Below are positions 207 to 15,869 of a DNA stretch of 55,010 nt, in pieces. Made by a program: the position numbers and the translations under genes. The notes beneath the pieces were generated by a model. The model saw only the letters and a list, made by a program, of their open reading frames with translations. It did no database searches and was not told the DNA's origin. Each line of letters starts with the position of its first letter. Position 1 is the stretch's first letter. Origin of the DNA: a virus. Taxonomy: Duplodnaviria; Caudoviricetes. Location of the stretch: the IMG/VR virus record IMGVR_UViG_3300042466_000463, positions 1 to 55,010 of that record. One strand, given 5' to 3'.

Positions 207-210
207 ATGT

Positions 211-417: not shown

Positions 418-420
418 ACA

Positions 421-627
421 TCAAATATTATTGTCTTGGGTAACTTCATTTTCTATATTTTCTTCGTATGACATAATCTTGAATGACCTTTTGTTTAACT
501 TTAAGGCGTCATTCATAAACAGTTGGAACTTCTTGTATATGTCGTCGTTATACCATAGGTAGTGGTATAGCCTAGCCATTTCCATTTGTCTTTCTAGTGG
601 CGTTAAGTCTTGAAATTTATTTTCCAT
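421..627 (-). CDS. Hypothetical protein
   Basis: 68-aa ORF in the tightly packed leftward operon. Confidence 0.7.
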   Translation of the reverse strand: MENKFQDLTPLERQMEMARLYHYLWYNDDIYKKFQLFMNDALKLNKRSFKIMSYEENIENEVTQDNNI

Positions 628-916
628 TGTTTTTATTTTTAATAGTGTAAGATATAATAGATATAGATAATATGTATGTCATCTTCTCATTGAATTGATA
701 ATCAGCCTCTTCTACGGTTATATGTTTTAATAATTCAGAATTTTTACCAGATAATATATTCCTCAACTCAATACAATAATCAATCTCATACTTATCAAAG
801 TAATGCTCTCTCGCAAAATCAAATACGTGATTGAAGAAATTATCTTTTACCCAATCATCATATACGTAATCAGCGTCTATCATATCCTCTTGTGGCCCAT
901 CATATAACTTACTCAT
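617..916 (-). CDS. Hypothetical acidic protein
   Basis: 99-aa ORF overlapping the next gene by 11 nt. Confidence 0.7.
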   Translation of the reverse strand: MSKLYDGPQEDMIDADYVYDDWVKDNFFNHVFDFAREHYFDKYEIDYCIELRNILSGKNSELLKHITVEEADYQFNEKMTYILSISIISYTIKNKNNGK

Positions 917-956
917 AAAATTAAATATTAATTGCTAAATAGCAATGTTTTAAATG

Positions 957-1583
957 TTAAAATTTTCCCCATTGTTGAGCGATAGCTTTTGCTATGCCTG
1001 GAAATGTCTTACTTCTTAATGTTCTTCTTTCTGCCGCTGTCTTGGCGTTCGCTAATGCATCTGCATACCATTTAGGATGCGATTTGCCGGACTTAAATAT
1101 AGTTCGCTCACCTTTTCCTACAACATTTGTAGGCTCTAATTTTGGTAGGTTTTTGAGCCAAAGACATGTGGTCTTGGTTGCCTCATCTCCGAACATCCAT
1201 GGCTGTATGATTTGGTCAGGCTTTCTAATTAGTGTAGATATAACTGACACCGGATTCTCTATGGCTATCCTAGGTATGTTGACATGCATTAAATCACTTA
1301 CGAAACCTATTGCTAAATCTCTCTGCTTATATCTATCTCTATTAGCAGTACCGTCTTTATTATACAGCCACCTAGCACCACTTACTGAAAGGTATGTGCA
1401 TGGCGGATGAGCAATCATTAAATCCCAATCCCTATCCACAAAATTAAAAACGTCTCCTTTAAGATGCCATTCAGGATGTCCGCCACTACAATCAAGTATG
1501 TCGCATGAGTACGCCTCATGACCTAGTGCCCTAAATTCTTTTGTTATTGTTTGGCTCTCTTCACAAGCCACAAGTACTCTCAT
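957..1583 (-). CDS. DNA cytosine-C5 methyltransferase (short phage type)
   Basis: N-terminal SAM-binding-type motif VLVACEESQ, catalytic HPPC, ENPV motif, C-terminal TFPGIAKAIAQQW. Confidence 0.85.
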   Translation of the reverse strand: MRVLVACEESQTITKEFRALGHEAYSCDILDCSGGHPEWHLKGDVFNFVDRDWDLMIAHPPCTYLSVSGARWLYNKDGTANRDRYKQRDLAIGFVSDLMHVNIPRIAIENPVSVISTLIRKPDQIIQPWMFGDEATKTTCLWLKNLPKLEPTNVVGKGERTIFKSGKSHPKWYADALANAKTAAERRTLRSKTFPGIAKAIAQQWGKF

Positions 1584-1586
1584 ATA

Positions 1587-1826
1587 TTAATGTATTGTTG
1601 GTAAGACCCCATTGGAGCCGTAAAATAGTACACCACCATCATTGCCTTCATCATCCATTGATAGCATACAAGACGTTCCGTCATCTAGAAAAAAGCATAG
1701 CGACCTACTACCCCAACCCATCATCTCCATTTCTTCATCGTTAAGGTATCTAGCCTCTACTATCTTTCTTCCTACTAATACTTCTTTGGCTTTCGTGTTC
1801 CAGGTTGATACGTAATCTTTACTCAT
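1587..1826 (-). CDS. Hypothetical phage protein
   Basis: 79-aa ORF with a DDEGNDGG motif; operon packing. Confidence 0.7.
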   Translation of the reverse strand: MSKDYVSTWNTKAKEVLVGRKIVEARYLNDEEMEMMGWGSRSLCFFLDDGTSCMLSMDDEGNDGGVLFYGSNGVLPTIH

Positions 1827-1836
1827 GGTAATAATT

Positions 1837-2016
1837 TTATTTATTAAAAAATTCAGCCTCTACTAAATCAAATTCCCATTTGCTTTCAGGAAGCTCCCCG
1901 TTATCTTCTCTTTCATTATTGTGCCTACGAAACCATTCATCAAAGGCTTTTGGAGAGTCAACAATAGCCTCTATACTGTTATCTTCTTTGTAAATAATCG
2001 CATACATTGTTTTCAT
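1837..2016 (-). CDS. Hypothetical 59-aa acidic protein (not in ORF track)
   Basis: ATG 2016 to TAA 1837; MKTMYAIIYKEDNSIEAIVDSPKAFDEWF...; fills the gap between its neighbours. Confidence 0.7.
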   Translation of the reverse strand: MKTMYAIIYKEDNSIEAIVDSPKAFDEWFRRHNNEREDNGELPESKWEFDLVEAEFFNK

Positions 2017-2018
2017 AT

Positions 2019-2543
2019 CTATGAATTTTGTTTTAAGATTAGCTGTCTCATGTCAGACTTAAAATTATTCGTACTTACTATATCTTCTAATGATTCAAAT
2101 TTGCCACCATAATACATATATTCATACGACGTATCAAGTTTTGCTATACTGTTTATATTGCTATCAAAATAAATCTTATCAGATTTTTGACGGCACGATA
2201 TATCAACATGCTCAGTAGTCTCTATATAGTATCTTTTGAATTGCTTTAATGTTGTTATACGAATATTAGAAGTCCATTTTTTATATGCTACCAAATCATA
2301 TTTAACTAAATCATCATTTATCCTTTTAATATCCTTGTCTACGTTATCGAGAAATATCTTTGTGTTTATAGTATTCTGCAATTCAATCTCGCTCCTTCTA
2401 ATCTTATCTGCATTCAGTTCCTTAATGAGTGTACTTAAATCTATAAGCCCACCTTCGTATGTCTTGTAATCATCATTAATCTTATTGAACTCATTAGTGA
2501 TTTGAGTTATAATATCTTGCTGGTTTTGTGTTAATTGATTCAT
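2019..2543 (-). CDS. Hypothetical protein
   Basis: 174-aa ORF with 2-nt spacing to its neighbours. Confidence 0.7.
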   Translation of the reverse strand: MNQLTQNQQDIITQITNEFNKINDDYKTYEGGLIDLSTLIKELNADKIRRSEIELQNTINTKIFLDNVDKDIKRINDDLVKYDLVAYKKWTSNIRITTLKQFKRYYIETTEHVDISCRQKSDKIYFDSNINSIAKLDTSYEYMYYGGKFESLEDIVSTNNFKSDMRQLILKQNS

Positions 2544-2545
2544 AA

Positions 2546-2821
2546 CTATTTTATTTTGTTTGTGTAAACTAATTTATCTTTATCTTCTGAATGTATTTCG
2601 CAAGTTGGCTCACCACCATTATCCTCGGGGTCCATACCTTCAAGCGTTTCATATAGATACTCCCAATCTAAATCATCATCATAACTTAGATTTTGCCGTG
2701 GGTCTGATTCTATTTGCTTGATTTTCTCCAATGCCTGCTCATAGCTTTCAGCCTCGATGCTGAACTTTAATCTTAACCATATTGTATTTTTCTCATCTTT
2801 GTAGAAGTCAAAAGTTTTCAT
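2546..2821 (-). CDS. Hypothetical acidic protein
   Basis: 91-aa ORF with an IEAESYEQA motif common in small phage early proteins. Confidence 0.7.
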   Translation of the reverse strand: MKTFDFYKDEKNTIWLRLKFSIEAESYEQALEKIKQIESDPRQNLSYDDDLDWEYLYETLEGMDPEDNGGEPTCEIHSEDKDKLVYTNKIK

Positions 2822-2823
2822 GT

Positions 2824-3033
2824 TTATTTATTTATATTATTAGAAAATTGCATATCCATTTGCACAACTTCATTTGACACCATCCAATTAGCATTGGATA
2901 GGTCTATGTACATATAACTTGTGGCGTACTCATCAACAGATGATATATCGCCCATGTCTTCCCAGCCGACCGGTAGCTTGTACTGTTTGACAGTTTTTTC
3001 TTCGTGGTCCATTACTACTAAATAATACTGCAT
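2824..3033 (-). CDS. Hypothetical protein
   Basis: 69-aa ORF; operon packing. Confidence 0.65.
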   Translation of the reverse strand: MQYYLVVMDHEEKTVKQYKLPVGWEDMGDISSVDEYATSYMYIDLSNANWMVSNEVVQMDMQFSNNINK

Positions 3034-3035
3034 AC

Positions 3036-3233
3036 TTAATCCGTTTTAGTGTTTTCAATTATAGAATAATATTTATCATATAGGTCATTGAATATATCCT
3101 GTGCCTCATCGGTATACTCTAACACATCTGCATTATCATCTTTATATATCTTTATAGAGTTCTCCCAATCTTGATGAAGCTTTTCACTAGCTAACTCACT
3201 AGCTAATTCTATTATGTTTATTGTTACGTTCAT
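3036..3233 (-). CDS. Hypothetical acidic protein
   Basis: 65-aa ORF; operon packing. Confidence 0.7.
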   Translation of the reverse strand: MNVTINIIELASELASEKLHQDWENSIKIYKDDNADVLEYTDEAQDIFNDLYDKYYSIIENTKTD

Positions 3234-3235
3234 AA

Positions 3236-4312
3236 TTAATTTAGTTGCTTTTGATTATTAGTAATATGCTTTTGAGCCGTATACATATCGTTCTCGTATA
3301 TGTCGAAGCATGATTTACATACTATCGCATCGAAGTCTTGCAAGTATTCGGCCTCTCCTACTTTTGATATGTTATTACAATCCTCGCATAAGAACTCATC
3401 ATCTTTTAGGTATGCCTTCTTCTTTGTGTCGAGCCCTAGCCAGTTATCGTATGAATCCCAATCGTATGAGTCATACTTTTTATCATTGGCGGTAGTGCTG
3501 CTCCACTTATTGTATCCACCATATCCACCATAATATCCTGTGCCATACCCATATGACCTATCTGCCTTATGCTTGTAAGTATCAGTCATAGTAGTCATAA
3601 TCTCATACACCATGAGCATACAGTTATTGACATCATCGAATACAACAATCTCATCATCGCTATGTGGATTGTAGTAACCGCAACTCATATTAGCAACCGA
3701 TACACCAACGCCATCGAGAGCAAGTTGGTAAACATCTGTCATGCCGCCATCGGAAAACTCATAGCCATAACGCTTGATGATAGTGAGCACATCATTAGAG
3801 AAGTCGGAACTCTGCAAGTCCAAGCCAAAGATGTTATTGACAAAATCTTTGTTACCCTTCCTATCACACTGCAATATAAATCTAACATCATCGAAGAATT
3901 CTAGCATGGCATCACTACTACCAACGCAACCCACCTCCTCATCACGAAAGAATACAACCTTTACATTGTCCAGGTGTTTGAGCATAGTAAGGCACACGAA
4001 TATACCTACCTTATCATCGCCACCGCAACCACTAGGCATATTAAGCCCTCTATCGAAACCCATTGCACAATAGTCATCGTGCATAATCTTGAACCTATCT
4101 TGCGGTATAATCTTGTGCACTGTATCCATGTGAGAAACTATGCATGGGTATGAATCTGCCACACCTTTTGATGCATAGATATTTCCGTTATCCATAACGT
4201 AATCTATATTCATTTCATCAAGTCTATCCATGATGAAGTTCTCCATGTCAACAGAGTTGTAAGTTTCTGACTGAACGGATAGTATGTCTATTAGTAGTTG
4301 CTTGTTAAACAT
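3236..4312 (-). CDS. Zn-dependent M20/M28-type peptidase with C-terminal Zn ribbon
   Basis: SHMDTVH, GGDDKVG, DEEVGCVGS, CDRKG and GYYNPHS metal/catalytic motifs; Tyr/Gly linker; CEDC...CKSC. Confidence 0.85.
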   Translation of the reverse strand: MFNKQLLIDILSVQSETYNSVDMENFIMDRLDEMNIDYVMDNGNIYASKGVADSYPCIVSHMDTVHKIIPQDRFKIMHDDYCAMGFDRGLNMPSGCGGDDKVGIFVCLTMLKHLDNVKVVFFRDEEVGCVGSSDAMLEFFDDVRFILQCDRKGNKDFVNNIFGLDLQSSDFSNDVLTIIKRYGYEFSDGGMTDVYQLALDGVGVSVANMSCGYYNPHSDDEIVVFDDVNNCMLMVYEIMTTMTDTYKHKADRSYGYGTGYYGGYGGYNKWSSTTANDKKYDSYDWDSYDNWLGLDTKKKAYLKDDEFLCEDCNNISKVGEAEYLQDFDAIVCKSCFDIYENDMYTAQKHITNNQKQLN

Positions 4313-5939
4313 TTTCTTCTTCTTTTAATTGTTCTAAATATTCTTCAACGAAATCATTGTGTACCCAAACATATACCTCAACCTCTGTCATGCTCTCTCT
4401 GTGATACGTGCGGCCAGTATGAGCACACTCTTCTGCATCATCTTCGTGAATAGTATCTCCGTCATATGTTTCTTCTGTATCATCTACCCTGAAATACTCT
4501 CCTCTCGAATCAACATACACAATACTATCCGAACCTTCTGCATAATAGTCGAAGCCTACATTAATAGCATCTCTCTCTAATATCCTATATCCGTCTGCTG
4601 ACATTACCGTGTTGTCTATATGCGTAGTGCCACTCCAACTTACTTCATCAGTGCAATAGGATAAATAAACCGAATCCTCTTCACAAATAGTACGGTCGTC
4701 TAATTCATCGTACACGCCATTCTCTTCATAACCTCCGTCAGTACATCTTAATGTATGGGTATAGTCATAATCTCTATTAGATAATAACTTGTTGTTTTGA
4801 TTAAGGTACATCATCGTGTCCATGTACGGATACTCCGAGAAGTCAGCATCGTGTAACTTTACAACAGCCTCCCAATCGCTACAACTACCACCGGCATACA
4901 TATCGAACTCGTGATGATGGCATGACTGCTGGGACTTGTAATAGTAATCATTATCAATAGCCCACTTGACAAACACTTGCCTAACTCTGTCAGGAGAATA
5001 GATAGTATCCATTGCCTTCCTACCATTAGTACACTCCCATAACAAAGCCCTGCCTACAATCTTACCAAACGTATCTTTGGCTACTAACATCTTGATATTG
5101 TTTTCTACATATATGTCAAAGTAATCCTGACACGAGCCATACCGCATACACGAGCCCCATAAGTTACTGCCGCTATCTGCAAGTTCGCTGTAATTATTCT
5201 CATGATACCCCTTGCGTATGTCTTCGCCTGACAATACCTCTATGGATAGCGTTCTACCTTCTCCGTCTTCATCGCCATTGATACCTATGTATGACCTTAC
5301 CATATTACCGAACTGCTCGAAGTCCTTATCTGTCAGCGTAATCTTATGATACAACTCATCTCTTATCTCATCATCTTCATGTAGTATTTTTCTAGCTATC
5401 TTGCCTGGCTTCATCTCTTGTCTACCTTCACGTGCCCATCTGCCGCTATCATTAACAACGTGCGGCTTACCCTTTGGCAGATAAGAAAACATCTCTCCAC
5501 GCATAGTTACATAGTCGCAAAATAAATTCTTGTCAGAATAGTTAAGCATTAAGCTGGCTACTATACTATGATTCTCCAACTCCCTTAACATAAAGCGTGT
5601 TGATTCGCTGAATGTAACGAGCCTCTTCTCTCTAATCCTATACAACTCACGAACCCTAGCACGCTTATCCTCTTCCTTCTGCTCTTCGATAATCTCTTGA
5701 ATACGTTGAGCGTGCCTATGCTCTTCCGTATACTTATCATACAGTTCATTCCAATACTCGTGACCTTGTGGGGTATGACTCCAACGCATAGTCATAGTAA
5801 TAGCTTGGGCCATTGATATGAATGTATCGCTCTCTTCATATATATTAGAATGAGAGCATCTACCACTACTTACATTTTCCAGGGCCTGAGTCCTATACGG
5901 CTCAGGTAGTTCATTGAACCATTCTACATAAGTCTTCAT
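4305..5939 (-). CDS. SCM-motif protein (possibly PcfJ-related) with acidic C-terminal repeats
   Basis: GSCMRY, GRALLW, MDTIY and YPYMDT motifs; N-terminal W..TPQG.EYW module; overlaps the peptidase start. Confidence 0.65.
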   Translation of the reverse strand: MKTYVEWFNELPEPYRTQALENVSSGRCSHSNIYEESDTFISMAQAITMTMRWSHTPQGHEYWNELYDKYTEEHRHAQRIQEIIEEQKEEDKRARVRELYRIREKRLVTFSESTRFMLRELENHSIVASLMLNYSDKNLFCDYVTMRGEMFSYLPKGKPHVVNDSGRWAREGRQEMKPGKIARKILHEDDEIRDELYHKITLTDKDFEQFGNMVRSYIGINGDEDGEGRTLSIEVLSGEDIRKGYHENNYSELADSGSNLWGSCMRYGSCQDYFDIYVENNIKMLVAKDTFGKIVGRALLWECTNGRKAMDTIYSPDRVRQVFVKWAIDNDYYYKSQQSCHHHEFDMYAGGSCSDWEAVVKLHDADFSEYPYMDTMMYLNQNNKLLSNRDYDYTHTLRCTDGGYEENGVYDELDDRTICEEDSVYLSYCTDEVSWSGTTHIDNTVMSADGYRILERDAINVGFDYYAEGSDSIVYVDSRGEYFRVDDTEETYDGDTIHEDDAEECAHTGRTYHRESMTEVEVYVWVHNDFVEEYLEQLKEEENV

Positions 5940-5973
5940 AACATTTGATTTATAGGTTTAGAAATTTAAGTGA

Positions 5974-6312
5974 TTAATTTATTGTTACATCGGTAGGAAG
6001 TTCAGGATATTTGTAATCCTCCCACCACTCCGCACCGTCATACTCTCTTCTATCTAACCAAACTCCATTTGTTAGCCACACTACACCAAACAAACCCTGA
6101 ATACCGTATCCATTTTGATATTCAAAATCAAGCTTGGATAAGAAGAAATCAAACTCTTCATCTATATAACCCTGTTTTAATTCAAAGCGTTCTTCTCCAA
6201 GGCTTACACTGGCAGCACTACCAAAGTAAATACTAGCACATAATACTTCTGCATTATGTTTCTTCTTAACATCGTTTAGCACTTCCAATAACTCTTCCTT
6301 TGCATTTATCAT
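5974..6312 (-). CDS. Hypothetical phage protein
   Basis: 112 aa; GYG...G.VW...G.W..R.EYDG.EWW pattern. Confidence 0.75.
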   Translation of the reverse strand: MINAKEELLEVLNDVKKKHNAEVLCASIYFGSAASVSLGEERFELKQGYIDEEFDFFLSKLDFEYQNGYGIQGLFGVVWLTNGVWLDRREYDGAEWWEDYKYPELPTDVTIN

Positions 6313-6318
6313 AGCTTT

Positions 6319-6627
6319 TTATTTAGAGGTTTTAGATTTTAATTTACTTGAATACAATCTTCCGTCTACCATGTCTTCTTTATTAATTCCGTTAGCGAGT
6401 TCCAATCCTTTCTTGTATCTATCTATCTCTTCATTAAGCTCATTTACTACAAACTCCTTAGCCTCCTCAAAACTTCTCAGGTACTTGCAATCGTCTTCGT
6501 AATAATCTAAATCAAACTTATATTCATCCTCATCTTTTATATGCACTTCTATTATTGCATATTTTAGTTTATCGTAACTTCCATAATCTTCATTAAAGGT
6601 TACTTCGTATGCTAATACTTTTTTCAT
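6319..6627 (-). CDS. Hypothetical acidic protein
   Basis: 102-aa ORF. Confidence 0.7.
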   Translation of the reverse strand: MKKVLAYEVTFNEDYGSYDKLKYAIIEVHIKDEDEYKFDLDYYEDDCKYLRSFEEAKEFVVNELNEEIDRYKKGLELANGINKEDMVDGRLYSSKLKSKTSK

Positions 6628-6637
6628 AGCTTTTTAT

Positions 6638-6742
6638 TTAGAGGTTTAGAAATTTATCCGTGTATCCCGTTTCGCTTTTTCTTGCGTCTCTTACTATCAG
6701 TATGGCAAACACTACTGACATGATGGGTATTACTACTAGCAT
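6638..6742 (-). CDS. 34-aa single-TM peptide (not in ORF track)
   Basis: MLVVIPIMSVVFAILIVRDARKSETGYTDKFLNL; start overlaps the upstream stop. Confidence 0.5.
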   Translation of the reverse strand: MLVVIPIMSVVFAILIVRDARKSETGYTDKFLNL

Positions 6743-6855
6743 GTTACTTTCTTTTTAGTGAATAAAGATTTTACCGCAGCGCCTACAATGAACAGACCTA
6801 ACCCAATAAATAAAGTAAACAGCGTATCGTGTACGATGTGCAATAGATTTGACAT
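6736..6855 (-). CDS. 39-aa single-TM peptide (not in ORF track)
   Basis: MSNLLHIVHDTLFTLFIGLGLFIVGAAVKSLFTKKKVTC; starts 3 nt after the upstream stop. Confidence 0.55.
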   Translation of the reverse strand: MSNLLHIVHDTLFTLFIGLGLFIVGAAVKSLFTKKKVTC

Positions 6856-6858
6856 AGC

Positions 6859-7062
6859 TTAATTGTTATTGATGATAAAATTTAATTCTTCTTTTAACCG
6901 CTTGACACATAGCTTTTTAGTAAAGTATGCCTTATCTCCTGGCTGACCGTCTATTTTGTATTCCCATATAGTACCCCTATGAGTTCTATGGCTACTTACA
7001 GAAATAAAAAAGCCGGATACTATTGTTGTATAGTTGCCGGCTCCAACCCTTCTAAATATCAT
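6859..7062 (-). CDS. Hypothetical basic protein
   Basis: 67-aa ORF. Confidence 0.6.
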   Translation of the reverse strand: MIFRRVGAGNYTTIVSGFFISVSSHRTHRGTIWEYKIDGQPGDKAYFTKKLCVKRLKEELNFIINNN

Positions 7063-7073
7063 GTGCTTACATT

Positions 7074-7280
7074 TTAGAATCTTTTAAGTTTATTTTTCCT
7101 TACATCTTTATAGCTGTAATAATAAAGCGCACTTGATAAGTAGCCTAATATAGATGCCATTGTAATTACTCCAAAGCTAACTGCTCCGACCTCCAATGTT
7201 GCAAATAATAATAGGATAATAAATGTAGTAACTATTGCCAATGCAACAGATACTAATAAGTAAGATTGACTTTCCTTCAT
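7074..7280 (-). CDS. Two-TM membrane protein (likely start MKESQ at 7280)
   Basis: Two hydrophobic helices; AT-rich leader; the longer ORF-track start lies inside the terminator. Confidence 0.65.
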   Translation of the reverse strand: MKESQSYLLVSVALAIVTTFIILLLFATLEVGAVSFGVITMASILGYLSSALYYYSYKDVRKNKLKRF

Positions 7281-7351
7281 GTGTTTAATTTTAATGATTA
7301 AATAAAATAGCGCCATACTATAATTGAATATCACGGCTTTACCGGCATGGC

Positions 7352-7392
7352 TATAAAAAGAAAGGAGCAAAGAAATTAATCTTTGCCCCTTC
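7352..7392 (-). terminator. Intrinsic terminator (leftward)
   Basis: Minus strand AAGGGGCAAAGA-TTAATT-TCTTTGCTCCTT followed by TCTTTTT. Confidence 0.75.
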
Positions 7393-7397
7393 TAATA

Positions 7398-7806
7398 TAT
7401 GTTTATGTTTGTTTATAGTCGACTCATATATTTTGCTATCAATATTGACCTTCGACTCGTATACCTTCACGCGTCTACACTCCTAATGTAGCCGATGCTT
7501 GACTTATATACAATTACGAACTCCCCTACATATATGTATATGTAGCGTAATGATTCAGGCACTAATGAAATACCTAAAAAAGTATTTCGGTTAATTAGTG
7601 TTTATCCTAATTGGATTCACTTTGCTAAATTGCAAAGTAAAGGGACAATAATTTCAAAGATTCAATAAAATTTATAGGCTTATGCTATCTATGTGCAGCG
7701 GCTATAAACATACGGCAATTTTTAGAGCGAAATTGCATAAACTATTGGGGGGTATATAAATATCCGATATTTGCAGCGGTCTATTTGCAACCGCTTAATA
7801 TACCCC
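7398..7806 (+). ncRNA. Large multi-hairpin structured non-coding element (RNA or ssDNA)
   Basis: Closing stem 7410-7421/7699-7710; hairpins at 7471-7498, 7513-7551, 7557-7603, 7604-7616, 7619-7638 and 7715-7736; three-way junction 7749-7806; wobbles are G-T on the + strand. Confidence 0.7.
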
Positions 7807-7817
7807 GAAAAAACGCC

Positions 7818-8243
7818 TTAATTGTTACATAATTCGGCAAAGGTTAGACGCTTATTTGCAGCGTCTTTATATGCTTGTTTTATAGCACTAATCTTAGGTA
7901 AATTTTGCATATCTAACCCTTCAACTTCGGGCGCAAATTGTACCCGAATAGCTTTAAAGATAGCTTTTGCCGTGCTTACTGAATCGCTTTTCATTATTTC
8001 GCTACCTTCAACAAGTACCGACCCCGATTCGTTTGTAACGCTCATAGCCCACTCAATAGGTTGACCCTTTGCGATACCCTTAAACATACTACCAACTAAT
8101 TGGCTAAATAAAGGAGTGAGCCCTTTGCCCCATGTGTCCGCATCGTTTACTGAAATTTCTGCGTGTCTAGTTAAGCCTGAAAAATTTGCACCTTTAAGAT
8201 TAACAAATGGTGCTGCATCGATTGTGAAATTTACTTTTGTCAT
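7818..8243 (-). CDS. Hypothetical protein, first gene of the leftward unit
   Basis: 141-aa ORF between the repeat region and the structured element. Confidence 0.75.
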   Translation of the reverse strand: MTKVNFTIDAAPFVNLKGANFSGLTRHAEISVNDADTWGKGLTPLFSQLVGSMFKGIAKGQPIEWAMSVTNESGSVLVEGSEIMKSDSVSTAKAIFKAIRVQFAPEVEGLDMQNLPKISAIKQAYKDAANKRLTFAELCNN

Positions 8244-8329
8244 AAAACATAATTTTTGTGCTCGTTAAAATTTTTGAGCGGTGAATGAATAGGGGCGCAA
8301 TGTACGTCGGGCAATAAATATAAGTCAAG

Positions 8330-8560
8330 GTTATTATGATGAGCGGTAAAAAAGACATGATGAGCGGTAAAAATATTTTAATAGAAGGTAAAAATTGCAT
8401 GGCAAAGTAAAAAAATAAGGTAGTAATATAATGATGAAATAAGGGTATAAAATGGAGCGAATAAAGTAACAATATAAGGGTATAAAGTAGCTGCAAAAAA
8501 TAGGGGTATAAAGTGGTAAGTATAAGGGTATGAAATTGGGGTATATGTGTAGGGGTTAGA
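8330..8560 (+). repeat. Iteron-like direct repeats in a purine-skewed non-coding tract
   Basis: atgatgagcggtaaaaa at 8336 and 8357; ggtaaaaa at 8345, 8366 and 8387 (21-nt period); gggtat cores at 8443, 8478, 8504, 8526 and 8539. Confidence 0.8.
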
Positions 8561-9196
8561 CGCGGTAACGCAGCCAACAATTTACCAGTTGAAATGCTAA
8601 AAAAATTAGTAAAGTTTACCCAAAATTGTTAGTACTAAAAAATTTAGCAGCCATACTAAAAAAACTGGCTAATTTCGTATGAAATAAAATTACCATATAT
8701 AAAGAAACGCCATCAAATTACAAAAAATTCGTATGTGTAGGGTACACGGGTAGCGAAACGCAATTACCCGAGGGGATAGCCTGGGCCGGTGTAAAAAGTT
8801 AACCCCACTCGGTCATACATTTCACATTTTTTCAACAACCAAAATCGCCCATATTTTACATTTTAGGGGGTACTCTATTTTACGAAATCTGTAACAAAAT
8901 TTGCCAAAATACGTAACAAAACAGGTCCAAATTCGGAAGTGATACTACCAATTATGTACAAGAATACGTACAATGTTTGCTATTTAGCAATACTCCGCAA
9001 TGAAATGAAACAGTTAAATAGGGTCATACTAGAAACCTATATCTTTTTGAGGTCATTTTAGAGCTTAAATTAGGTACTGTTTTAAGTCTCTATTTATTAG
9101 AAAAGTAACTATTAATATACATTAAGAAGGAAATGTTATAACTCATTGATTATTAACACTAGTATAGAAAAATTTTTTTCTTTAAAAGAAAGAATT

Positions 9197-9204
9197 TACG
9201 TTTG
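9197..9204 (+). promoter_or_regulatory. Bacteroidota sigma-A -7 element
   Basis: TACGTTTG ends 5 nt before the RepL-like ATG. Confidence 0.6.
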
Positions 9205-9209
9205 TAGAT

Positions 9210-9683
9210 ATGAAACAGAAAGAATACCTACAAAATCCATTTAAGCCTACAGGCATAGAGTTGAAAGAGTATATGACCTCAGATAGTGAGACAATAACGA
9301 TTGACCCTAACACAGGAGAACTCTACTCTATGAAGAAGCTTCCTAAAAATAAAAAGGTGCTTCACGATTCAAAGATATATATAAAACTGTTTCAGGACAA
9401 ATCAGACGTCTTGATGAATCTTCCATACCAAAGCATGAGAATCTTCTTTTACATATGCTCTAGAGTACGACCCATGAGAGACTATGTATTTCTCAATAAA
9501 GATGATATTACGGCTGTTTTAGGTAATATGTCTGAGCCAACATTCAGACTTGCTATTAATGGTCTTATTGAGGCTAATGTGGTTGCTAGGAAGATGGGTT
9601 CAAGTTTAGAGTATTGGTTGAATCCTGATATCATGTTTAATGGAAGTAGACTCAAGCTAGTGGAAAATCACAAAATGATTTAA
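9210..9683 (+). CDS. repL: RepL-like winged-HTH replication/regulatory protein
   Basis: HTH region followed by YWLNPDIMFNG, matching the RepL-family Y..NP..F.G end; crAss-like phages carry RepL near the terminase. Confidence 0.65.
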   Translation: MKQKEYLQNPFKPTGIELKEYMTSDSETITIDPNTGELYSMKKLPKNKKVLHDSKIYIKLFQDKSDVLMNLPYQSMRIFFYICSRVRPMRDYVFLNKDDITAVLGNMSEPTFRLAINGLIEANVVARKMGSSLEYWLNPDIMFNGSRLKLVENHKMI

Positions 9684-9714
9684 AGCATATCTTTGCATAC
9701 AGAATAAAGTAAAA

Positions 9715-9885
9715 ATGAAAAGTACTGTAAACAAAGCCGGCAACTATACTAAGCCAACTATGAGAAAAGGCTTGTTTGAGAAAATCAAAGCAGGTACTAA
9801 AGGCGGTAACGCTGGAGAGTGGTCTGCAAGAAAAGCTCAAATGTTAGCAAAGGAGTATAAAGCTAAGGGAGGAGGATATAAATAG
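9715..9885 (+). CDS. 56-aa basic protein, DUF5872-like N-terminal half (not in ORF track)
   Basis: ...GGNAGEWSARKAQMLAKEYKAKGGGYK; TATCTTTG promoter at 9688-9695. Confidence 0.75.
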   Translation: MKSTVNKAGNYTKPTMRKGLFEKIKAGTKGGNAGEWSARKAQMLAKEYKAKGGGYK

Positions 9886-9886
9886 T

Positions 9887-10129
9887 ATGGCAAAGAAGGA
9901 AACGCAACAAAGTTTAGATAGGTGGACTAATCAGAAATGGACTACAGCGTCAGGAAAGCCATCTAGCAAAACAGGAGAGGTCTATGCTCCGGCAAAGACA
10001 ATATCAAAGTTGAAGAGTACTGATGAAGGTAGAAGGAAACTTGCAGCAGCCAATGCTACAAAAAGAGCAGCAACTAAAGCAGGTAAGCAATTCGCGAATC
10101 ACGGATTACATAAAGGTAAAAAAAGATAA
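9887..10129 (+). CDS. Basic protein, DUF5872-like C-terminal half
   Basis: SLDRWTNQKWTTASGKPS..TGEVYAP motif. Confidence 0.7.
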   Translation: MAKKETQQSLDRWTNQKWTTASGKPSSKTGEVYAPAKTISKLKSTDEGRRKLAAANATKRAATKAGKQFANHGLHKGKKR

Positions 10130-10130
10130 C

Positions 10131-10439
10131 ATGCAAGAAAAAGAAAAAAGACCTAACAACAGAAAAGTTGGCGAAACAGGTAAGGCTAGTATGGCTAGCA
10201 AGTTTGAAGAAGCTATGCAGAAGGAAAGAGATACCGTACTGAATAGAGCTAAAAAAAGAGAAGCAGCAGAAAAAGCTAAAACTCCTAGCGTAAACATTAA
10301 TAGAGTAACTGAGATTCTTAAAAAGAAAGGAGCAGCTCTAAAATCTGCACCTATGAAAGAAGCGATAAAAAAGTCAATAAAAGAAGGTAACTCTGAAAAC
10401 TCTATGATGAAAGCTTTAATTAACAGATTTAAAAGCTAG
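10131..10439 (+). CDS. Lys-rich hypothetical protein (likely start MQEKE)
   Basis: ATG 1 nt after the upstream stop; basic composition. Confidence 0.6.
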   Translation: MQEKEKRPNNRKVGETGKASMASKFEEAMQKERDTVLNRAKKREAAEKAKTPSVNINRVTEILKKKGAALKSAPMKEAIKKSIKEGNSENSMMKALINRFKS

Positions 10440-10442
10440 TAA

Positions 10443-11498
10443 ATGGCAGACACTAACCCTAAACCAAGTCCTAGACCATCGTTATTAAGACAGCTTTTTG
10501 AAGGTGGAGCATTCGTACCTTCGCCAGGCGGCCTTTATACTACCATTAAAAAAATGGGAAAGCAGATTACAAGCAATATAGCTAGTAATATAGAGCCAAG
10601 GGGATATACTGACGGAAGGTCTACAGCTAAGAGTCAAACTATGCAAGACATAGAGAATACTATAAGGTCAGCAAAAAAGTTTACTAAGGCAGGTATATTA
10701 AACGAAGTGAGTCCGTATAGAATGGCTACAGATGAGCTTATAAAAAATAGCGAAGGTTCTACCGACCCATTTGTCAATAGTATTGCAGGGGAAGCTAAAG
10801 AAAGAGTAGACCTAGTTAATATGTGGGCAGGTAAGCCTCAGAAATATGGAACTGTTTTTAAATCAGAATACAAGCCAACTATAGGCGCAGAAGAGGGGAT
10901 ACAATACTATAAGCTCCCAGGTGTTGAAAAGGAATTATTTTCAAACATAATGCGAAACGGTATAATGGAAGGTAAGTTTAATCAGCCAGTAAAAACAAAG
11001 CAAGATTTAGAAAATGCACTAGGGATTGCAAAATCAGGTATTTTCACGGAAGTTAAAGATGACTCAGGTAAAAGAGTTGGATACATGGGTACTATACGTT
11101 CTTTAGGAGAAGGTACTGTTAGTGTAGGAGAAGACGAAAAGGGTCCTTACATAAGTTATTATGATAAATGGGATATAAATCCTTTAGCAGGAGCTTCATC
11201 TGCAATGCCAAGTTGGGTTCCTGATATTATTACTAAAGGAATCGACAAGGTAGTTACAGGTGTTCCGGAGAAAATGGGAATCACAAGTGCTCCAAGAGTA
11301 TATGGAAGAATATACTTTGATAGAAAAACAGGAAAGCCTATTGGTAAAGAGTTTGAAGATATTTTCAACAAACTAAAATCTGAATCTCAAGGCGTTGAAC
11401 AACCTGTAGAGGAAGGGAAAAAGAGCTCTGGTTCTACTGGTAGTTTTTCCGGATTGATTAAGAAGGGTTCTCCTAGCTCTGTAGGAAAGAAAAAATAA
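10443..11498 (+). CDS. Hypothetical (possibly virion) protein
   Basis: 351 aa with a GPYISYYDKWDINP motif. Confidence 0.7.
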   Translation: MADTNPKPSPRPSLLRQLFEGGAFVPSPGGLYTTIKKMGKQITSNIASNIEPRGYTDGRSTAKSQTMQDIENTIRSAKKFTKAGILNEVSPYRMATDELIKNSEGSTDPFVNSIAGEAKERVDLVNMWAGKPQKYGTVFKSEYKPTIGAEEGIQYYKLPGVEKELFSNIMRNGIMEGKFNQPVKTKQDLENALGIAKSGIFTEVKDDSGKRVGYMGTIRSLGEGTVSVGEDEKGPYISYYDKWDINPLAGASSAMPSWVPDIITKGIDKVVTGVPEKMGITSAPRVYGRIYFDRKTGKPIGKEFEDIFNKLKSESQGVEQPVEEGKKSSGSTGSFSGLIKKGSPSSVGKKK

Positions 11499-11666
11499 GT
11501 ACAGTGTATGAGCTGGCCATATGAAGCAGAATACTAGGACATTTATTTCATTATAAGTTAGTCCTGTTAGTTCTCCGATATAATTCATTATATCAACACA
11601 TATCCAGAATAGTTCATCTACTGTTTCTTGTTGGAAAGGAAGGAATCCTACGATTTCTTGTGACAT
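11373..11666 (-). CDS. Small membrane protein inverted within the late block
   Basis: CVDIM...TGLTYNEINVLVFCFIWP pattern; AT-rich leader; 3' end overlaps the convergent gene. Confidence 0.6.
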   Translation of the reverse strand: MSQEIVGFLPFQQETVDELFWICVDIMNYIGELTGLTYNEINVLVFCFIWPAHTLYLFFLSYRARRTLLNQSGKTTSRTRALFPFLYRLFNALRFRF

Positions 11667-11766
11667 TGTAAATAGTTTTTAGTTTTATAAATAGCTTATA
11701 GAACAATATTAAAGAATGAATTTGAAATAAATAGTAATTTTAATAAACTTTAACAAACTTTAACAA

Positions 11767-11889
11767 ATGGCGAAGGTAAAAGGCGATAGCGTAAAAACGA
11801 ATTTTGGTAAGAGAAAGGGAGGTTCTGCAAAGAAATCCTATAATAAACATTCACCTAAGCCAAAGCAATATAGGGGACAAGGAAGATGA
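11767..11889 (+). CDS. 40-aa basic protein ending YRGQGR (not in ORF track)
   Basis: MAKVKGDSVKTNFGKRKGGSAKKSYNKHSPKPKQYRGQGR; ATGA overlap with the next gene. Confidence 0.75.
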   Translation: MAKVKGDSVKTNFGKRKGGSAKKSYNKHSPKPKQYRGQGR

Positions 11890-12212
11890 TAAACCTAGAT
11901 AGACTAACTAAACTAAAGAAGAGGTACGGATTCACTGAATTCAACAAACCCAAGCCATCTGACGATAGTACACATAAGAGAATGGTACTAGCTAAAGAAG
12001 GTGACAAGGTTAAACTTGTTAGATATGGTGCTAAAGGATATTCTTCAAACTATTCAGACGAAGCTAGACAACAATATAGAAAGCGCCACGCTAAAGAAGC
12101 TAACTCATCAAAGTTAACAGCAGGTTGGTGGGCATTCCATGACCTATGGTCTAAAGGCTCTAAAGTTTATAGAGACGGCAAAACTTCTGGTAAAGGAGAG
12201 CGTTTCAAGTAA
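11886..12212 (+). CDS. Basic protein, DUF5754-like
   Basis: KLVRYGAKGY...R..YRKRH...TAGWWA..LW pattern. Confidence 0.65.
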   Translation: MINLDRLTKLKKRYGFTEFNKPKPSDDSTHKRMVLAKEGDKVKLVRYGAKGYSSNYSDEARQQYRKRHAKEANSSKLTAGWWAFHDLWSKGSKVYRDGKTSGKGERFK

Positions 12213-12243
12213 ATATATTCATATCTTTGCTATAAATCAAAGT

Positions 12244-12543
12244 ATGAAGCAAGATAAATTAAACGAGGCTGTTATTGCCTCTATAGAGTATATGCTTAAG
12301 CCATACGGTATCAGCATGTTACATATCTCACAAAATCCAATAATAGAAGGTAAGCATTGGTTTCATTATTATACATTCAAATCCAAAGAGCAGTTCGAGG
12401 ATTGGAGAGAGCAAACTATTGCCATATTCAGAAAGCACGCCAAAGTATCAAAATCAGCAGCAAAGAAATATTTTAACCAATTAAACATGCAATATGGACT
12501 CAAAGAAGATTACTCTACAGAGCCTGAAACCACTGAGGGGTAA
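12244..12543 (+). CDS. Hypothetical protein (likely start MKQDK)
   Basis: TATCTTTG promoter at 12222-12229 precedes ATG 12244. Confidence 0.65.
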   Translation: MKQDKLNEAVIASIEYMLKPYGISMLHISQNPIIEGKHWFHYYTFKSKEQFEDWREQTIAIFRKHAKVSKSAAKKYFNQLNMQYGLKEDYSTEPETTEG

Positions 12544-13117
12544 GGTACTCGTAGGTGTCAACTACGATGAGAAGAAGGAACATAAACTAGCAGATGGAAC
12601 ATCTATTCAAGTTGAACGTCAGTTTGACTGGGATGGTAAGATGTCTCAAAACACATTCGGAATCATTATGCATGATTATGAGAATGTAAAGAGCGGAACT
12701 ATGATTGTCATAAATCACAACGCTTGTATCAAAGAAACTTGCCTTCCTGTTAAATACGGGAAGTATGATATATACTCTATTGATGCGGCTCAAGTATACG
12801 CATATGTAATAGACGGAGTGCCACATCCTTTTGATGGATACTTCTTAGTAGACAGGCTAGAAGAGGTAAAAGAAAAATCTGTTATCTATACCGAACATAC
12901 CGAGAAAAAACATATTCATAATAAGTTCCTGGTTAAAGAGATAGGTGTTAACGAAGATATCAAAGAAGGAGATATAGCCGTCTGTTATACAATGTCTGAT
13001 TATGAACTTCCGTATAACAATAACGGAAGATTAGAGTATCTAATAAGAGTAAAGGTTAGAGATGTTGTAGCAATAGAGAATTTTGATAAAACAAAGTATG
13101 CAATCTATGAAAAGTGA
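12494..13117 (+). CDS. Tandem GroES-like co-chaperonin-fold protein
   Basis: LKPLRGKVLV resembles the GroES N-terminus; second unit HPFDGYFLV...IKEGDIAV; position upstream of the terminase. Confidence 0.65.
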   Translation: MDSKKITLQSLKPLRGKVLVGVNYDEKKEHKLADGTSIQVERQFDWDGKMSQNTFGIIMHDYENVKSGTMIVINHNACIKETCLPVKYGKYDIYSIDAAQVYAYVIDGVPHPFDGYFLVDRLEEVKEKSVIYTEHTEKKHIHNKFLVKEIGVNEDIKEGDIAVCYTMSDYELPYNNNGRLEYLIRVKVRDVVAIENFDKTKYAIYEK

Positions 13118-13415
13118 TAAGGATAGTTTAAAAGAGATAATAGAGATTATAGAAAAAGACCACATCATTGGTTCTTACTATCAGCTTCAAAAGAAGCTAA
13201 TGGAGATTAATAAGCTATTAGACGTAACTGACTTATCTCAAATAAACCTAGATAACAAAGATGATGGAACATGGGAAAGAATCATGAAGCTGTTTAGCTC
13301 AATAGGTGACATTAACGATGTTCTAAAAAAACTAAGAATAGATAATGGACTTACAGGAAACAAAGAAGAAGACATCAAAAAAAGCAAATCCATCATCGAA
13401 AGATTTGCTCAATAG
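13107..13415 (+). CDS. Helical protein, candidate terminase small subunit
   Basis: Position upstream of TerL; helical pattern; ends SIIERFAQ. Confidence 0.45.
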   Translation: MKSDKDSLKEIIEIIEKDHIIGSYYQLQKKLMEINKLLDVTDLSQINLDNKDDGTWERIMKLFSSIGDINDVLKKLRIDNGLTGNKEEDIKKSKSIIERFAQ

Positions 13416-13863
13416 ATTAGAGCACTTTAAAGCTAAATCTTCTGAACTTTCTAAAAAGTTAAGTCTATTGAAACTAGACCAAAAGAGGTTAGTGGAAAGG
13501 AGTGCAGGATACAGGAAGGAGGCTAGGATAAAGAAATTCGCTCCTATTAATGTTACGCATGACGCAAAGACTATTTCTAGGTATATGCTGTTTACTCGTA
13601 ACTTAGAGAAAGCAACGGGTGTAAGCATATATAACATGGGAATATTAATATGGGCATCTTGCTATGAGAGATTCTGTTATTCAGATTATATGAAAGACGG
13701 AATAGCTAATAGCAATTCTTATTTTATATTTATCAGATACGCTATGGAGAATAATTACATCGGAAAACATAAGAATATAGAGAACGCTAAAACATACTTT
13801 ATAACACCTCTTGGTACAAAGACAGCAAACTCTTTTATTAAGTATATGAAAAAGAACGTATGA
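13345..13863 (+). CDS. Putative winged-helix DNA-binding protein (start uncertain)
   Basis: C-terminal YFITPLG wing motif; ATGA overlap with terL. Confidence 0.55.
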   Translation: MDLQETKKKTSKKANPSSKDLLNRLEHFKAKSSELSKKLSLLKLDQKRLVERSAGYRKEARIKKFAPINVTHDAKTISRYMLFTRNLEKATGVSIYNMGILIWASCYERFCYSDYMKDGIANSNSYFIFIRYAMENNYIGKHKNIENAKTYFITPLGTKTANSFIKYMKKNV

Positions 13864-15869
13864 TAGAAGAGATATATGGCATAAAATACGAACTACCTGA
13901 AAAGCCTAAACTAATAGAAATAGGTAACAGCGAATTGGATAAAGAGGACCAATACTTCAGGCTAACACAACTACCCGACTATTTAAGAGATGTAGAATTT
14001 GATGATAATGGTAACGCCATATATAACGAACAACAAGAGGGGTTTATTGTAAAGGAAATCAAAAGAATAAATGAGGGTTATTGGTTTTTTAATTACGGTG
14101 AGCCAACATACATAACAGGACTTCATTATTTCTACTTAAACTATTGGACACTAGAAGATGGAAGTAAGCCGGATTATAGAGAGGTAGATAGAAGATGGTT
14201 TTACTATCAAGACCACTGCGAAACATTAAATCACTGCTTTGGCATTGTCAGAATAAAGAAGCGTAGAGAGGGTGCCACATCACAGGCTACATGTTATCTT
14301 GTATGGAAATCAATTACCAAGAAGAAATCATTTTGTGGTATAGTTTCTAAAACAGGTAAAGATGCGAGCGACGCATTTATCTACATGGTAATGAACGGAT
14401 ACAGGAGCCTTCCTGTTTATCTTAAACCAAGAGCAGAAGATGAAGACACAAAGACCGAACTTGTATTTAGGGAAAAGAAAAGCAGAAAGATAAAAGTAAG
14501 AGAGAAGGGTCAAATGTTTGATGATGACATTGGTATTGAATCAAAAATAAATTGGAAGAATACCGCACTTAACTCTTATGACTCTGGAAGGGTAACCGCT
14601 CTACTAGTAGATGAGGGTGGTAAGTATCCTGCAGAGGTTCCTATCAATCAGTATTGGCCTATCGTTAAGAAGACCCTAGGGAAGGGTGCGTTTAGAGTAG
14701 GTTTCTGTTTGATGCCATCTACTGCCAACGATTCTAAATCAGGTGGTGAGCCATATAAGAAATTATTTGACGAATCTAATCACTTTGAAAATGAATATAC
14801 GGCTACGGGTCTTTATAGATACTTCTGTCCTGCTTATGATGGGTACGAAGGTTTTATAGATAGGTACGGCAAATCAATAATAGAAAATCCTACACCTGAG
14901 CAAAAAAAGTACATCAAGGAAAAGCTAGGCATGAATATAGATTGCGGAGCTAAAGATTTCTTAATGAGACAAAGGTCATTAATATCTGACCCTACATTAT
15001 TAGCGGAAGAGATAAGAATGAATCCATTCACAGAAGAAGAGGCATTCATGATTGACCAAAAGAGATGCTACTTTAACTCCGAGAAGATATATAATCAAAT
15101 AGAAAGAATAGAACAGGATAGAGTTATTCCAAGAAGAATAAGGTTATACTGGAAGTCAGAAGGAGTTGTGGATTGGTCAGATGATAAAGAAGGAATGTGG
15201 TCTGTTTACGAGATACCTGAAAAGGAACTTCAAAATAAGAAACTAGACGACAGGAAGATTCCGGCAAACACGCACATATTCTGTAATGGTATTGACCCGT
15301 ATCGTTCTACGATAATATCAGGAAAGGGGTCTATGGCAGCAGCTTATGTATTTAAGAGATTAGACCCAAATGACCCAGAGAATACCGGAATGGCTGTTGC
15401 AGAATTCTATGGTAGACCGAGACAAAAGTCAATGCTACATGAGGAAATGTTAAAGGCATGTGTTCTATGGGGAATGAAAGCGAATTATGAGAATGACGTA
15501 GGTGATGACTATGTTGACTATTTCAGGGATAGAGGATACTCTGAGTATCTATCTAAAACCCCACAAGCTGCGATAGACAGGAACAAGAAGAGGACAGGAA
15601 ATGTAACATACGGAGTAGCTTCTAGGGACCCGTTTGCCTTGGCTAGGCAATTAGAGACGTGTATCAACTACATTGAAACTCATTGCCATAAGATATTTTA
15701 CAGGGAATTGCTAGAGGAATTATTGAACTATGACCACGAGAATAGAACGCCTTTCGATAAGACTGTTGCTTTTATGATTTCCTTACTAGCAGGGGTTTCT
15801 ATAGAAATGAGAAAAGAAGAGATTAAGGTTCGCAAAGTGCCTATAAAATCTTATAAACTAAACCTTTAA
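13860..15869 (+). CDS. terL: Terminase large subunit
   Basis: YITGLHYFYLNY, Walker A-like KKRREGAT, Walker B LLVDEGGK, STAN, nuclease GIDPY, C-terminal FDKTVA. Confidence 0.9.
   Translation: MIEEIYGIKYELPEKPKLIEIGNSELDKEDQYFRLTQLPDYLRDVEFDDNGNAIYNEQQEGFIVKEIKRINEGYWFFNYGEPTYITGLHYFYLNYWTLEDGSKPDYREVDRRWFYYQDHCETLNHCFGIVRIKKRREGATSQATCYLVWKSITKKKSFCGIVSKTGKDASDAFIYMVMNGYRSLPVYLKPRAEDEDTKTELVFREKKSRKIKVREKGQMFDDDIGIESKINWKNTALNSYDSGRVTALLVDEGGKYPAEVPINQYWPIVKKTLGKGAFRVGFCLMPSTANDSKSGGEPYKKLFDESNHFENEYTATGLYRYFCPAYDGYEGFIDRYGKSIIENPTPEQKKYIKEKLGMNIDCGAKDFLMRQRSLISDPTLLAEEIRMNPFTEEEAFMIDQKRCYFNSEKIYNQIERIEQDRVIPRRIRLYWKSEGVVDWSDDKEGMWSVYEIPEKELQNKKLDDRKIPANTHIFCNGIDPYRSTIISGKGSMAAAYVFKRLDPNDPENTGMAVAEFYGRPRQKSMLHEEMLKACVLWGMKANYENDVGDDYVDYFRDRGYSEYLSKTPQAAIDRNKKRTGNVTYGVASRDPFALARQLETCINYIETHCHKIFYRELLEELLNYDHENRTPFDKTVAFMISLLAGVSIEMRKEEIKVRKVPIKSYKLNL

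Follow-up and report, generated by a model that had tools for sequence, protein, structure and literature searches.

What fills a gene-free gap of some 410 nucleotides (nt) that folds back on itself almost throughout, and on which strand does it act? The gap occupies positions 7398-7806 of IMGVR_UViG_3300042466_000463, a single uncultured virus record whose 55,010 bases (G+C about 36%, completeness estimate 79%) are called here the window, and it lies between orf141, the first of the leftward genes, and a terminator facing the same way. A preliminary description, made from the sequence alone, had presented it as a new structured phage element folding on the strand antisense to its operon. The present computational analysis indicates that the element is a structured RNA outside all catalogued Rfam families. 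It is in all likelihood read in the sense of the leftward genes, which is the minus strand of the window, and it may form the 3' tail of the orf141 transcript.

Covarying folds behind orf141

The element is known from 13 loci only, all of one uncultured phage group. Its part nearest to orf141 is a Y-shaped three-way junction (3WJ), in which arm 1 carries the conserved 9-nt loop UGMAAAUAG and arm 2 closes on the loop CGR. In the six close loci 100% of 105 alignment cells are paired, with both-side changes in 15 of the 21 pairs. In the 12 loci that hold the junction (11 distinct sequences), aligned by fitting to its covariance model, 98.3% of 229 cells are paired and both-side changes again affect 15 of 21 pairs (62 cells); none of 500 shuffles showed covariation as high as this set, and slid controls were 28-60% paired. 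Arm 1 presents at least six unrelated stem sequences beneath its one loop. These changes indicate that base pairing in the 3WJ is under selection. The MAFFT alignment A7, which was inconsistent with the structure, was left out of the counts.

A similar hairpin, GACGC-UGCAAAUAA-GCGUC, is found on the minus strand at 7846-7866, within the final codons of orf141. Its loop is nearly the same as that of arm 1 (partial match to the 3WJ covariance model, R1, of 16.1 bits). Synonymous changes in relatives give G.U pairs in gene sense, and the hairpin is absent from locus L067.

A second covarying module is a miniature tRNA-like junction located directly behind the terminator, 27 nt before the next ATG at 7281. 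One of its two hairpin loops has 5 nt and the other is UUCRAU; at the DNA level TTCRAT is invariant, save for R, in 7/7 loci. A T-loop is a five-nucleotide U-turn loop of the UUCRA type whose first and fifth positions form a reverse-Hoogsteen pair. Across seven loci 94.5% of 91 cells are paired and 7 of 13 pairs show both-side changes. The covariation score was equalled by none of 500 shuffles, but the count of further pair types was reached by 113 of the 500. All the unpaired cells belong to L067, whose 3' strand stands one column out of register and whose junction, taken alone, folds to the same shape. This module is not recognized as a tRNA, whose cloverleaf would include an anticodon arm as well as D and T arms, ARAGORN finding no gene in the window and Rfam no tRNA match at 7309-7351. 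The preliminary description had proposed looking for covariation among homologous loci; it is strong in both junctions.

The other observations of that description on sequence and folding were partly confirmed. All the sequences that it cited are present: tgtttatagtcg at 7410-7421, cggctataaaca at 7699-7710, the Y-junction at 7749-7806, tccc at 7522-7525 and ggga at 7642-7645. The gap is free of open reading frames (ORFs) of 40 aa or more under translation table 11, the only shorter ones of at least 30 aa being four of 30-39 aa that overlap it, and alternative codes (TAG=Q, table 4) yielded no long frame in it, the longest stop-to-stop stretch having 90 aa. Both strands of 7398-7806 fold about 4 standard deviations better than shuffles, and 0/100 shuffles fold as well as this 409-nt core on either strand. 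The element also appears to be new, as had been suggested, since strong covariation goes together with the lack of any Rfam 15 match at gathering score. The families covered include GOLLD, ROOL, phage pRNA, tRNA, tmRNA, RNase P, riboswitches and ribozymes, and the element belongs to none of them. A search of 7250-7900 at E values up to 10 gave 11 matches, all far under gathering score, the best of which (24.7 bits, against a gathering score of 55.8) falls on the terminator. Literature listings and abstracts contained no description of the element, and no paper on non-coding RNA in a Flavobacterium phage was among them.

In the whole window Rfam 15 gives just two matches, both to tRNA and both outside the element. 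In the match at 53757-53823 (minus strand, 48.7 bits) the acceptor, D and T arms are normal, but the "anticodon" arm closes on a 4-nt loop and so lacks an anticodon; the match is not called by ARAGORN, and 17 nt separate its end from the ATG with which the primase/helicase gene of that strand starts. The match at 106-206 (minus strand, 38.3 bits, 101 nt), not called by ARAGORN either, has acceptor, D and T arms like those of tRNA-Leu and an odd 47-nt middle, and a same-strand ATG follows it at a distance of about 17-20 nt.

Strand and modular layout

The preliminary description assigned the fold to the plus strand, where it read the wobbles of the stems as G-T pairs. The homologous loci argue for the opposite strand. 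In gene sense the 3WJ cells comprise 217 Watson-Crick, 8 G.U, 0 A.C and 4 other combinations, the last all at the terminal pair. On the plus strand the eight G.U cells would be A.C mismatches, and because of this bias, and because the sole strong terminator faces leftward, the minus strand is favoured. Energies agree with this choice. Consensus energy is lower in gene sense for 7/7 alignment sets (these overlap, two being subsets of two others), and the minimum free energy (MFE) of the whole unit is lower in gene sense at 6/6 close loci and 9/12 overall. The terminator segment is stabler in gene sense in 7/7 loci and the segment with helix Y and hairpin Z in 6/7, the exception being L003. The tRNA-like junction folds at -12.0 kcal/mol in gene sense vs -5.4 antisense (z +0.57 on the plus strand).

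Table 1. Predicted features of the element and its surroundings, with folding energies where calculated
Feature	Positions	Strand	Description	MFE (kcal/mol)	z
orf141	7818-8243	minus	first leftward gene, orphan 141-aa protein; TAA 11 nt before 3WJ		
3WJ	7749-7806	minus	outer 9-bp stem and two 6-bp arms	-20.5	
Hairpin B	7715-7736	minus	GCAATTT/AAATTGC, then conserved CCGTAYG; local fold		
Hairpin C	7670-7709	minus	local pairing of GTTTATAG with CTATAAAT; competes with 12-bp long-range stem		
Hairpin D	7616-7641	minus	TTTACTTTGC/GCAAAGTGAA		
Long-form middle domain	7458-7614	minus	hairpins F (7560-7600), G (7513-7551) and H (7458-7512)		
Helix Y enclosing hairpin Z	7417-7457	minus	conserved hairpin Z loop GAUAGCAA		
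Intrinsic terminator	7352-7392	minus	13-bp stem (7361-7392), then U run		
Mini tRNA-like junction	7309-7351 (43 nt)	minus	7-bp stem and two 3-bp hairpins		
RepL-like gene	9210-9683		adjoins repeat-rich non-coding region		
409-nt core	7398-7806	plus		-103.2	-4.64
409-nt core	7398-7806	minus		-104.6	-4.08
517-nt unit	7300-7816	plus		-127.5	-4.18
517-nt unit	7300-7816	minus		-137.4	-4.37

With respect to the general architecture, the preliminary description proposed that a 12-bp long-range stem encloses most of the hairpins. The stem is good in the window (11 Watson-Crick pairs and one A.C) and decays in relatives: L002 has 10 Watson-Crick pairs, one G.U and one mismatch, and the three short-form loci have 9 Watson-Crick pairs, 1-2 A.C and 1-2 mismatches. 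The competing hairpin C (TTTATAG/CTATAAA) is present in 5/5 loci and is changed on both sides in L002, the sole compensating change that discriminates between the local hairpin and the long-range stem. Because the enclosing stem decays while the local hairpin stays, with a compensating change, these comparisons suggest that the element is a chain of local modules rather than one enclosed fold. The limits proposed for it also stood in part. The leftward terminator is real; the unit extends beyond it, as far as the tRNA-like junction.

The modules differ in how well they are kept. The stem of hairpin B is identical across five close loci and not clearly present in L067, and the CCGTAYG that follows it is found in 7/12 loci. 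The same fraction holds the conserved motif TCNTTGAAAT that precedes hairpin D, at about 7652-7661. The middle domain is swapped: it is 97.3% identical to that of L002, an unrelated shorter domain replaces it in three loci, and L067 has yet another; against L064 and L003 its identity falls to 54-58%, with 66-67 gap columns. The tccc and ggga segments, for which a pseudoknot had been suggested, are invariant in the three loci having that hairpin, and the other forms lack the hairpin. In the short form, both-side changes affect 7 of 57 predicted pairs of the middle and 3' part, with 2 C.A cells. The loop GAUAGCAA of hairpin Z is retained on differing helix Y and hairpin Z stems in 7/7 loci. A loop-loop contact of UUGCAAAUA with UAGCAA was dropped, both loops being invariant, and a strand-neutral census of stems, dominated by chance long-range stems, was not used. 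Five loci (L211, L215, L223, L221 and L222) share an extra conserved motif, TAAGCGGGTWCG...CGCTG, 257-376 nt past the 3WJ in non-coding tails of 480-720 nt; the clade of the window is without it.

The terminator is an intrinsic (Rho-independent) one, in which 13 pairs are followed by CTTTTTAT on the minus strand. It is the sole strong (13-pair) terminator within 1-14000, where it faces leftward, from 7392 to 7361; the scan as a whole found 6 vs 6.9 expected. L002 and L061 have a different terminator stem sequence at the same place. Pairing of a CCCTTT segment with the 5' arm of the terminator, considered as an anti-terminator, covers 9-14 aligned positions where four loci have the terminator in common (L002 partly by eye) and was dropped, as it amounts to just 6 bp in L002.

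Related loci and genome setting

A neighbouring protein led to the viral contigs L002, L003 and L067 and to the metagenome contigs L064 and L066, and a DNA pattern search contributed the truncated L061. R1 was run over 80 loci fetched from an over-permissive scan (more than 119 stretches) and over 10 of the 13 stretches of a later broadened scan, the other three being known contigs; these screens contributed L211, L212, L215, L221, L222 and L223. L214, L220 and L219, which scored 15-17 bits with R1, and L217, which did not match, were treated as chance, and of the 57 stretches returned by a 15-mer scan just the 2 known contigs were real. No match was found by blastn and tblastn against 50,697 phage records or by the models R1 and R2 in 4 cultured Flavobacteriia phages, and the tRNA-like pattern and the protein profile had 0 matches each in 185,579 bacterial and archaeal genomes. 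Five new contigs were tested for the large terminase, and since all five (5/5) encode one 46-68% identical to that of the window, the loci appear to belong to one phage group, of genomes of about 68 kb. Repetitive extragenic palindromes (REP) and miniature inverted-repeat transposable elements (MITE) occur in many copies per genome. The element is not a dispersed palindromic repeat of this type, since the window and each of three related contigs hold a single copy.

In 12/12 loci the 3WJ starts 5-11 nt past the TAA of a same-strand ORF of 129-167 aa, and downstream of that start follow about 300-840 nt without an ORF of at least 50 aa. The proteins encoded upstream fall into at least three groups, namely orf141 in six loci, family B, which is lysine-rich, in five (its branches are 25-28% identical to each other), and one singleton. 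A profile comparison of orf141 with family B gave a probability of 0.1%, and no protein of any group, orf141 included, matched Pfam or PHROG. For orf141, 13 clusters at 90% identity were found, with just 2 real representatives among 1.84 billion. Its AlphaFold2 (AF2) model has a predicted local distance difference test score (pLDDT) of 84. Foldseek returned nothing at E <= 0.001, and the best VIA-align scores (Z 5.7 for the p19 siRNA binder, about 5.5 for polymerase little-finger domains) are within the noise range; we claim no RNA binding from such weak fold matches. The consensus TAnnTTTG, which we take to be the Bacteroidota -7 box, shows no conserved occurrence on the minus strand of 7180-9370 and, by eye, does not stand ahead of the 3WJ in the other clades, which fits co-transcription with the upstream gene.

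The neighbourhood was compared with L002, L003 and L064 over 6800-9400. On the RepL side each of the three comparisons gives 99% identity, and within these otherwise 99% identical neighbourhoods orf141 is 77-85% and the RNA modules are 54-100% identical. For instance, the tRNA-like junction is 60% and the middle domain 97% identical to that of L002. The gene downstream also differs between loci. The locus is, to judge from these alignments, a recombination mosaic and the fastest-changing part of its neighbourhood.

Among the phage's genes are those for a primase/helicase, a portal and a large terminase of the classical kind. Its terminase matched 91 cultured phage records, every one at less than 60% identity (best 29-31%), and nearly all of these phages infect Flavobacteriia (68 Flavobacterium, 15 Cellulophaga, 2 Tenacibaculum and 1 Maribacter). 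TAnnTTTG is not enriched overall in the window (61 matches vs 66 expected, with the consensus taken as above), and it stands 15-30 nt upstream of at least 8 rightward start codons, e.g., at 20902 for 20924 and at 30560 for 30593. Because of these terminase relatives and of the boxes before rightward starts, the host is probably a member of the Bacteroidota.

Leftward genes start at about 8243 and rightward genes at 9210, and the roughly 965 nt between them (8244-9209), non-coding and rich in repeats, are likely to contain an origin and/or early promoters. Short direct repeats are dense in this region (TTTTTACC, TATACCCYTAT and, twice, ATGATGAGCGGTAAAAA), GC skew changes sign near 8000, at the divergent non-coding region, and similar regions are present in L002 and L067. 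The same region contains a G+C-rich segment (8725-8825) that is kept in L002 and ends in a T run on the minus strand; it folds at -31.4 kcal/mol on that strand (z -2.43, against -0.48 on the plus strand), has no Rfam match and may be a second small RNA. A 14-nt palindrome, TTGCTAAATAGCAA at 8977-8990, nearly equals the hairpin D sequence at 7622-7636 (inverted-repeat pair I3, 93% complementary). The word TTGCTAA, considered as a repeated protein site, occurs 22 times in the window vs 16.9 expected and was discarded as not enriched.

Candidate functions and known systems

Pairing under selection, the wobble bias, the constant place after a stop codon and the leftward terminator together speak for a gene-sense structured RNA, in itself quite probable, that would form the 3' tail of the first leftward gene's transcript; with cis control at its downstream boundary added, we favour this explanation at somewhat less than even probability. 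Transcription of the element, its co-transcription with the gene, a binding partner and an effect on termination or processing are all things that we infer. The element would be a long structured tail of the orf141 transcript and not a separate antisense RNA, with the 3WJ 11 nt past the stop codon and then, in order, the hairpins, the variable middle domain, hairpin Z with its loop GAUAGCAA, the terminator and the tRNA-like junction. The mechanism of cis control is a shade more tentative than the reading as a whole. The folded tail would act where the first gene gives way to the leftward genes behind it. Through its conserved loops it might bind RNA polymerase itself or a protein of phage or host, and this binding would set the share of polymerases that stop at the terminator or pass it. 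In transcripts that read through, the message from the downstream genes might then be cleaved, or have its 5' end defined, at the tRNA-like junction. The idea of such a processing signal gains a little from the two aberrant tRNA-like genes, which also lie 17-20 nt before start codons.

Several points weigh against this interpretation. Some concern the strand: the segment of hairpins B, C and X is stabler antisense in 5/6 loci, the two strands of the 409-nt core are indistinguishable by energy (-104.6 vs -103.2) with a slightly better z on the plus strand, the whole-unit MFE is slightly lower antisense in 3/12 loci (L211, L215 and L221), and two C.A cells, one in hairpin Z of L003 and one in the short form, would become G.U if the opposite strand were read. 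Others concern the comparative evidence. The 12-locus alignment of the 3WJ leans towards structure because it was fitted to a model, many of the loci are near relatives, so that the stem variants number about six independent ones, and the tRNA-like junction is limited to the orf141 clade and missing in the remaining ones. In L067 the U run of the terminator is weak, and nothing links the element to termination control. A metatranscriptome run (X1, 9% of words) contains six short contigs of relatives that cover the gene, parts of the element and the terminator, but these strand-less contigs may come from DNA carry-over and are not used as evidence of transcription.

The same gene-sense RNA could act in trans, which is less likely than not when taken by itself and nearly as likely as the role in cis. 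In that case a folded RNA, stable and abundant, would work on the host or on the programme of the phage, either by itself or together with a protein (the upstream gene's product, for example), and its role could be that of a decoy, a sponge, a scaffold or an anti-defence RNA. Its size and ornate modular build, the conserved loops on covarying stems and a 3' end shielded by the terminator hairpin suit such a function, as do the orphan proteins of at least three unrelated families encoded upstream and the hypervariable mosaic locus in neighbourhoods about 99% identical, a pattern expected of arms-race loci. However, a trans-acting RNA would not need a fixed distance of 5-11 nt from the stop codon, and the best fold match of orf141, a viral dsRNA binder (Z 5.7), is within noise. 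A broader conjecture, to be taken as unlikely, combines these elements into a new modular class of phage RNA. A 3WJ "head" with two invariant loops would carry exchangeable ornate domains behind the first early gene and would form, together with the orphan protein (any of three unrelated), an early control or counter-defence cassette, with tRNA-like folds punctuating the leftward transcripts as processing signals.

A signal in single-stranded DNA (ssDNA) is a good deal less probable. In single-strand initiation signals and in the injection-stop signal of phage T5, DNA hairpins on one particular strand attract primase or PriA or bring DNA entry to a halt. Minus-strand DNA hairpins near the presumed origin at 8244-9209 could serve in priming, helicase loading or DNA entry: the element lies about 0.5-1 kb from the 1-kb non-coding region rich in direct repeats next to the RepL-like gene and near the change of GC skew, the phage has its own primase/helicase, DNA hairpins also tolerate G.T wobbles, and the minus strand would presumably be the lagging-strand template of a leftward fork. 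However, the UUCRA loop and the U run behind a hairpin are features of the RNA level, and the constant start 5-11 nt past a stop codon suits a transcript better. Likeness to a known priming signal was not found, no reference models being compared, and the phage group gives no sign of the stepwise DNA entry that goes with an injection stop of the T5 type.

It is slightly less probable again that the hairpins have no collective function and are independent terminators, nuclease barriers or recombination joints in a mosaic spacer between cassettes. The modules do swap independently among near-identical phages, the middle domain is wholly different between forms and the downstream gene differs too. 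However, phages with terminase identities of only 46-68% share the 3WJ and its loops, the genes that precede it are of three unrelated kinds, hairpin Z has a conserved loop although its stems are unrelated, and the modules keep a fixed order in a single copy per genome.

Least probable of all is the independent rightward RNA, antisense to the leftward operon, of the preliminary description, to which the plus-strand z of the core, the antisense stability of the hairpin B, C and X segment (5/6 loci) and a promoter-like TTTG-18 nt-TATGTTTG at 7382-7411 on the plus strand lend support, but that promoter was rejected as not conserved (the short-form loci and L067 lack it and L002 is without the -33 part), the plus strand has no terminator or T run past the element, the tRNA-like module does not fold on it, and the eight G.U cells of the 3WJ become A.C mismatches there with none changing in the reverse direction.

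Large ornate non-coding RNAs are rare and most of the known ones are still without a function. Each new covarying class is an entry point for structural and functional RNA work, and the one proposed here would be unusual in its fixed place 5-11 nt past a stop codon, in combining a conserved 3WJ with exchangeable domains and in occupying the part of near-identical phages that varies most, the usual seat of takeover, immunity or counter-defence functions. It suggests that in phages of Bacteroidota-type hosts, whose regulation is poorly known, early transcripts may be equipped with folded RNA and punctuated by tRNA-like structures. If the element merely stabilises or terminates a message, its interest would be local.

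Among known systems, the packaging RNA (pRNA) of phage phi29 is an Rfam family with a three-way-junction core. Like it, the element would be an early-transcribed phage RNA built on a 3WJ with conserved loops. Unlike it, the element has no Rfam match, its loops lack complementarity of the pRNA type, and the phage has a classical large terminase and portal. Small RNAs derived from bacterial 3' untranslated regions (3'-UTRs) usually have 50-150 nt, a seed region and an Hfq-type terminator that is shared with the mRNA. The element resembles them in lying on the sense strand between a stop codon and the intrinsic terminator of the gene, but it is three to eight times longer and ornate.

The mascRNA behind MALAT1 is a tRNA-like processing element. 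The t-elements of plant mitochondrial mRNAs (PMC1920247) belong to the same kind. The tRNA-like junction shares with both a 7-bp acceptor-like stem, a UUCRA loop and a position between an upstream RNA and the start of the next gene. It differs from them in having about 40 nt, 3-bp arms and no anticodon arm, and it is missed by ARAGORN and by the Rfam tRNA model. GOLLD and ROOL (PMC12286853) are large ornate RNAs of phages and prophages with Rfam families. The element is smaller (about 0.4-0.5 kb), does not match any Rfam model, is fixed directly behind the stop codon of a protein gene and ends in a terminator. Like them, it is a modular phage-borne RNA of several hundred nt and many helices, near tRNA-like genes and of unknown function.

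The control of termination in lambdoid early operons offers the last comparison. It includes the N/nut/tL1 module of lambda and the put RNAs of HK022, and in processive antitermination of the put type an RNA in the nascent transcript lets RNA polymerase pass terminators without protein factors. The nut and put sites are one or two small hairpins near the promoter, before the first gene, whereas the element is a 400-nt multi-domain fold after the gene, without sequence similarity to them. The likeness is one of layout only: in both cases a first leftward early gene is followed by a terminator, a folded RNA stands ahead of that terminator on the same transcript, and mosaicism peaks in this region of genomes that are otherwise alike.

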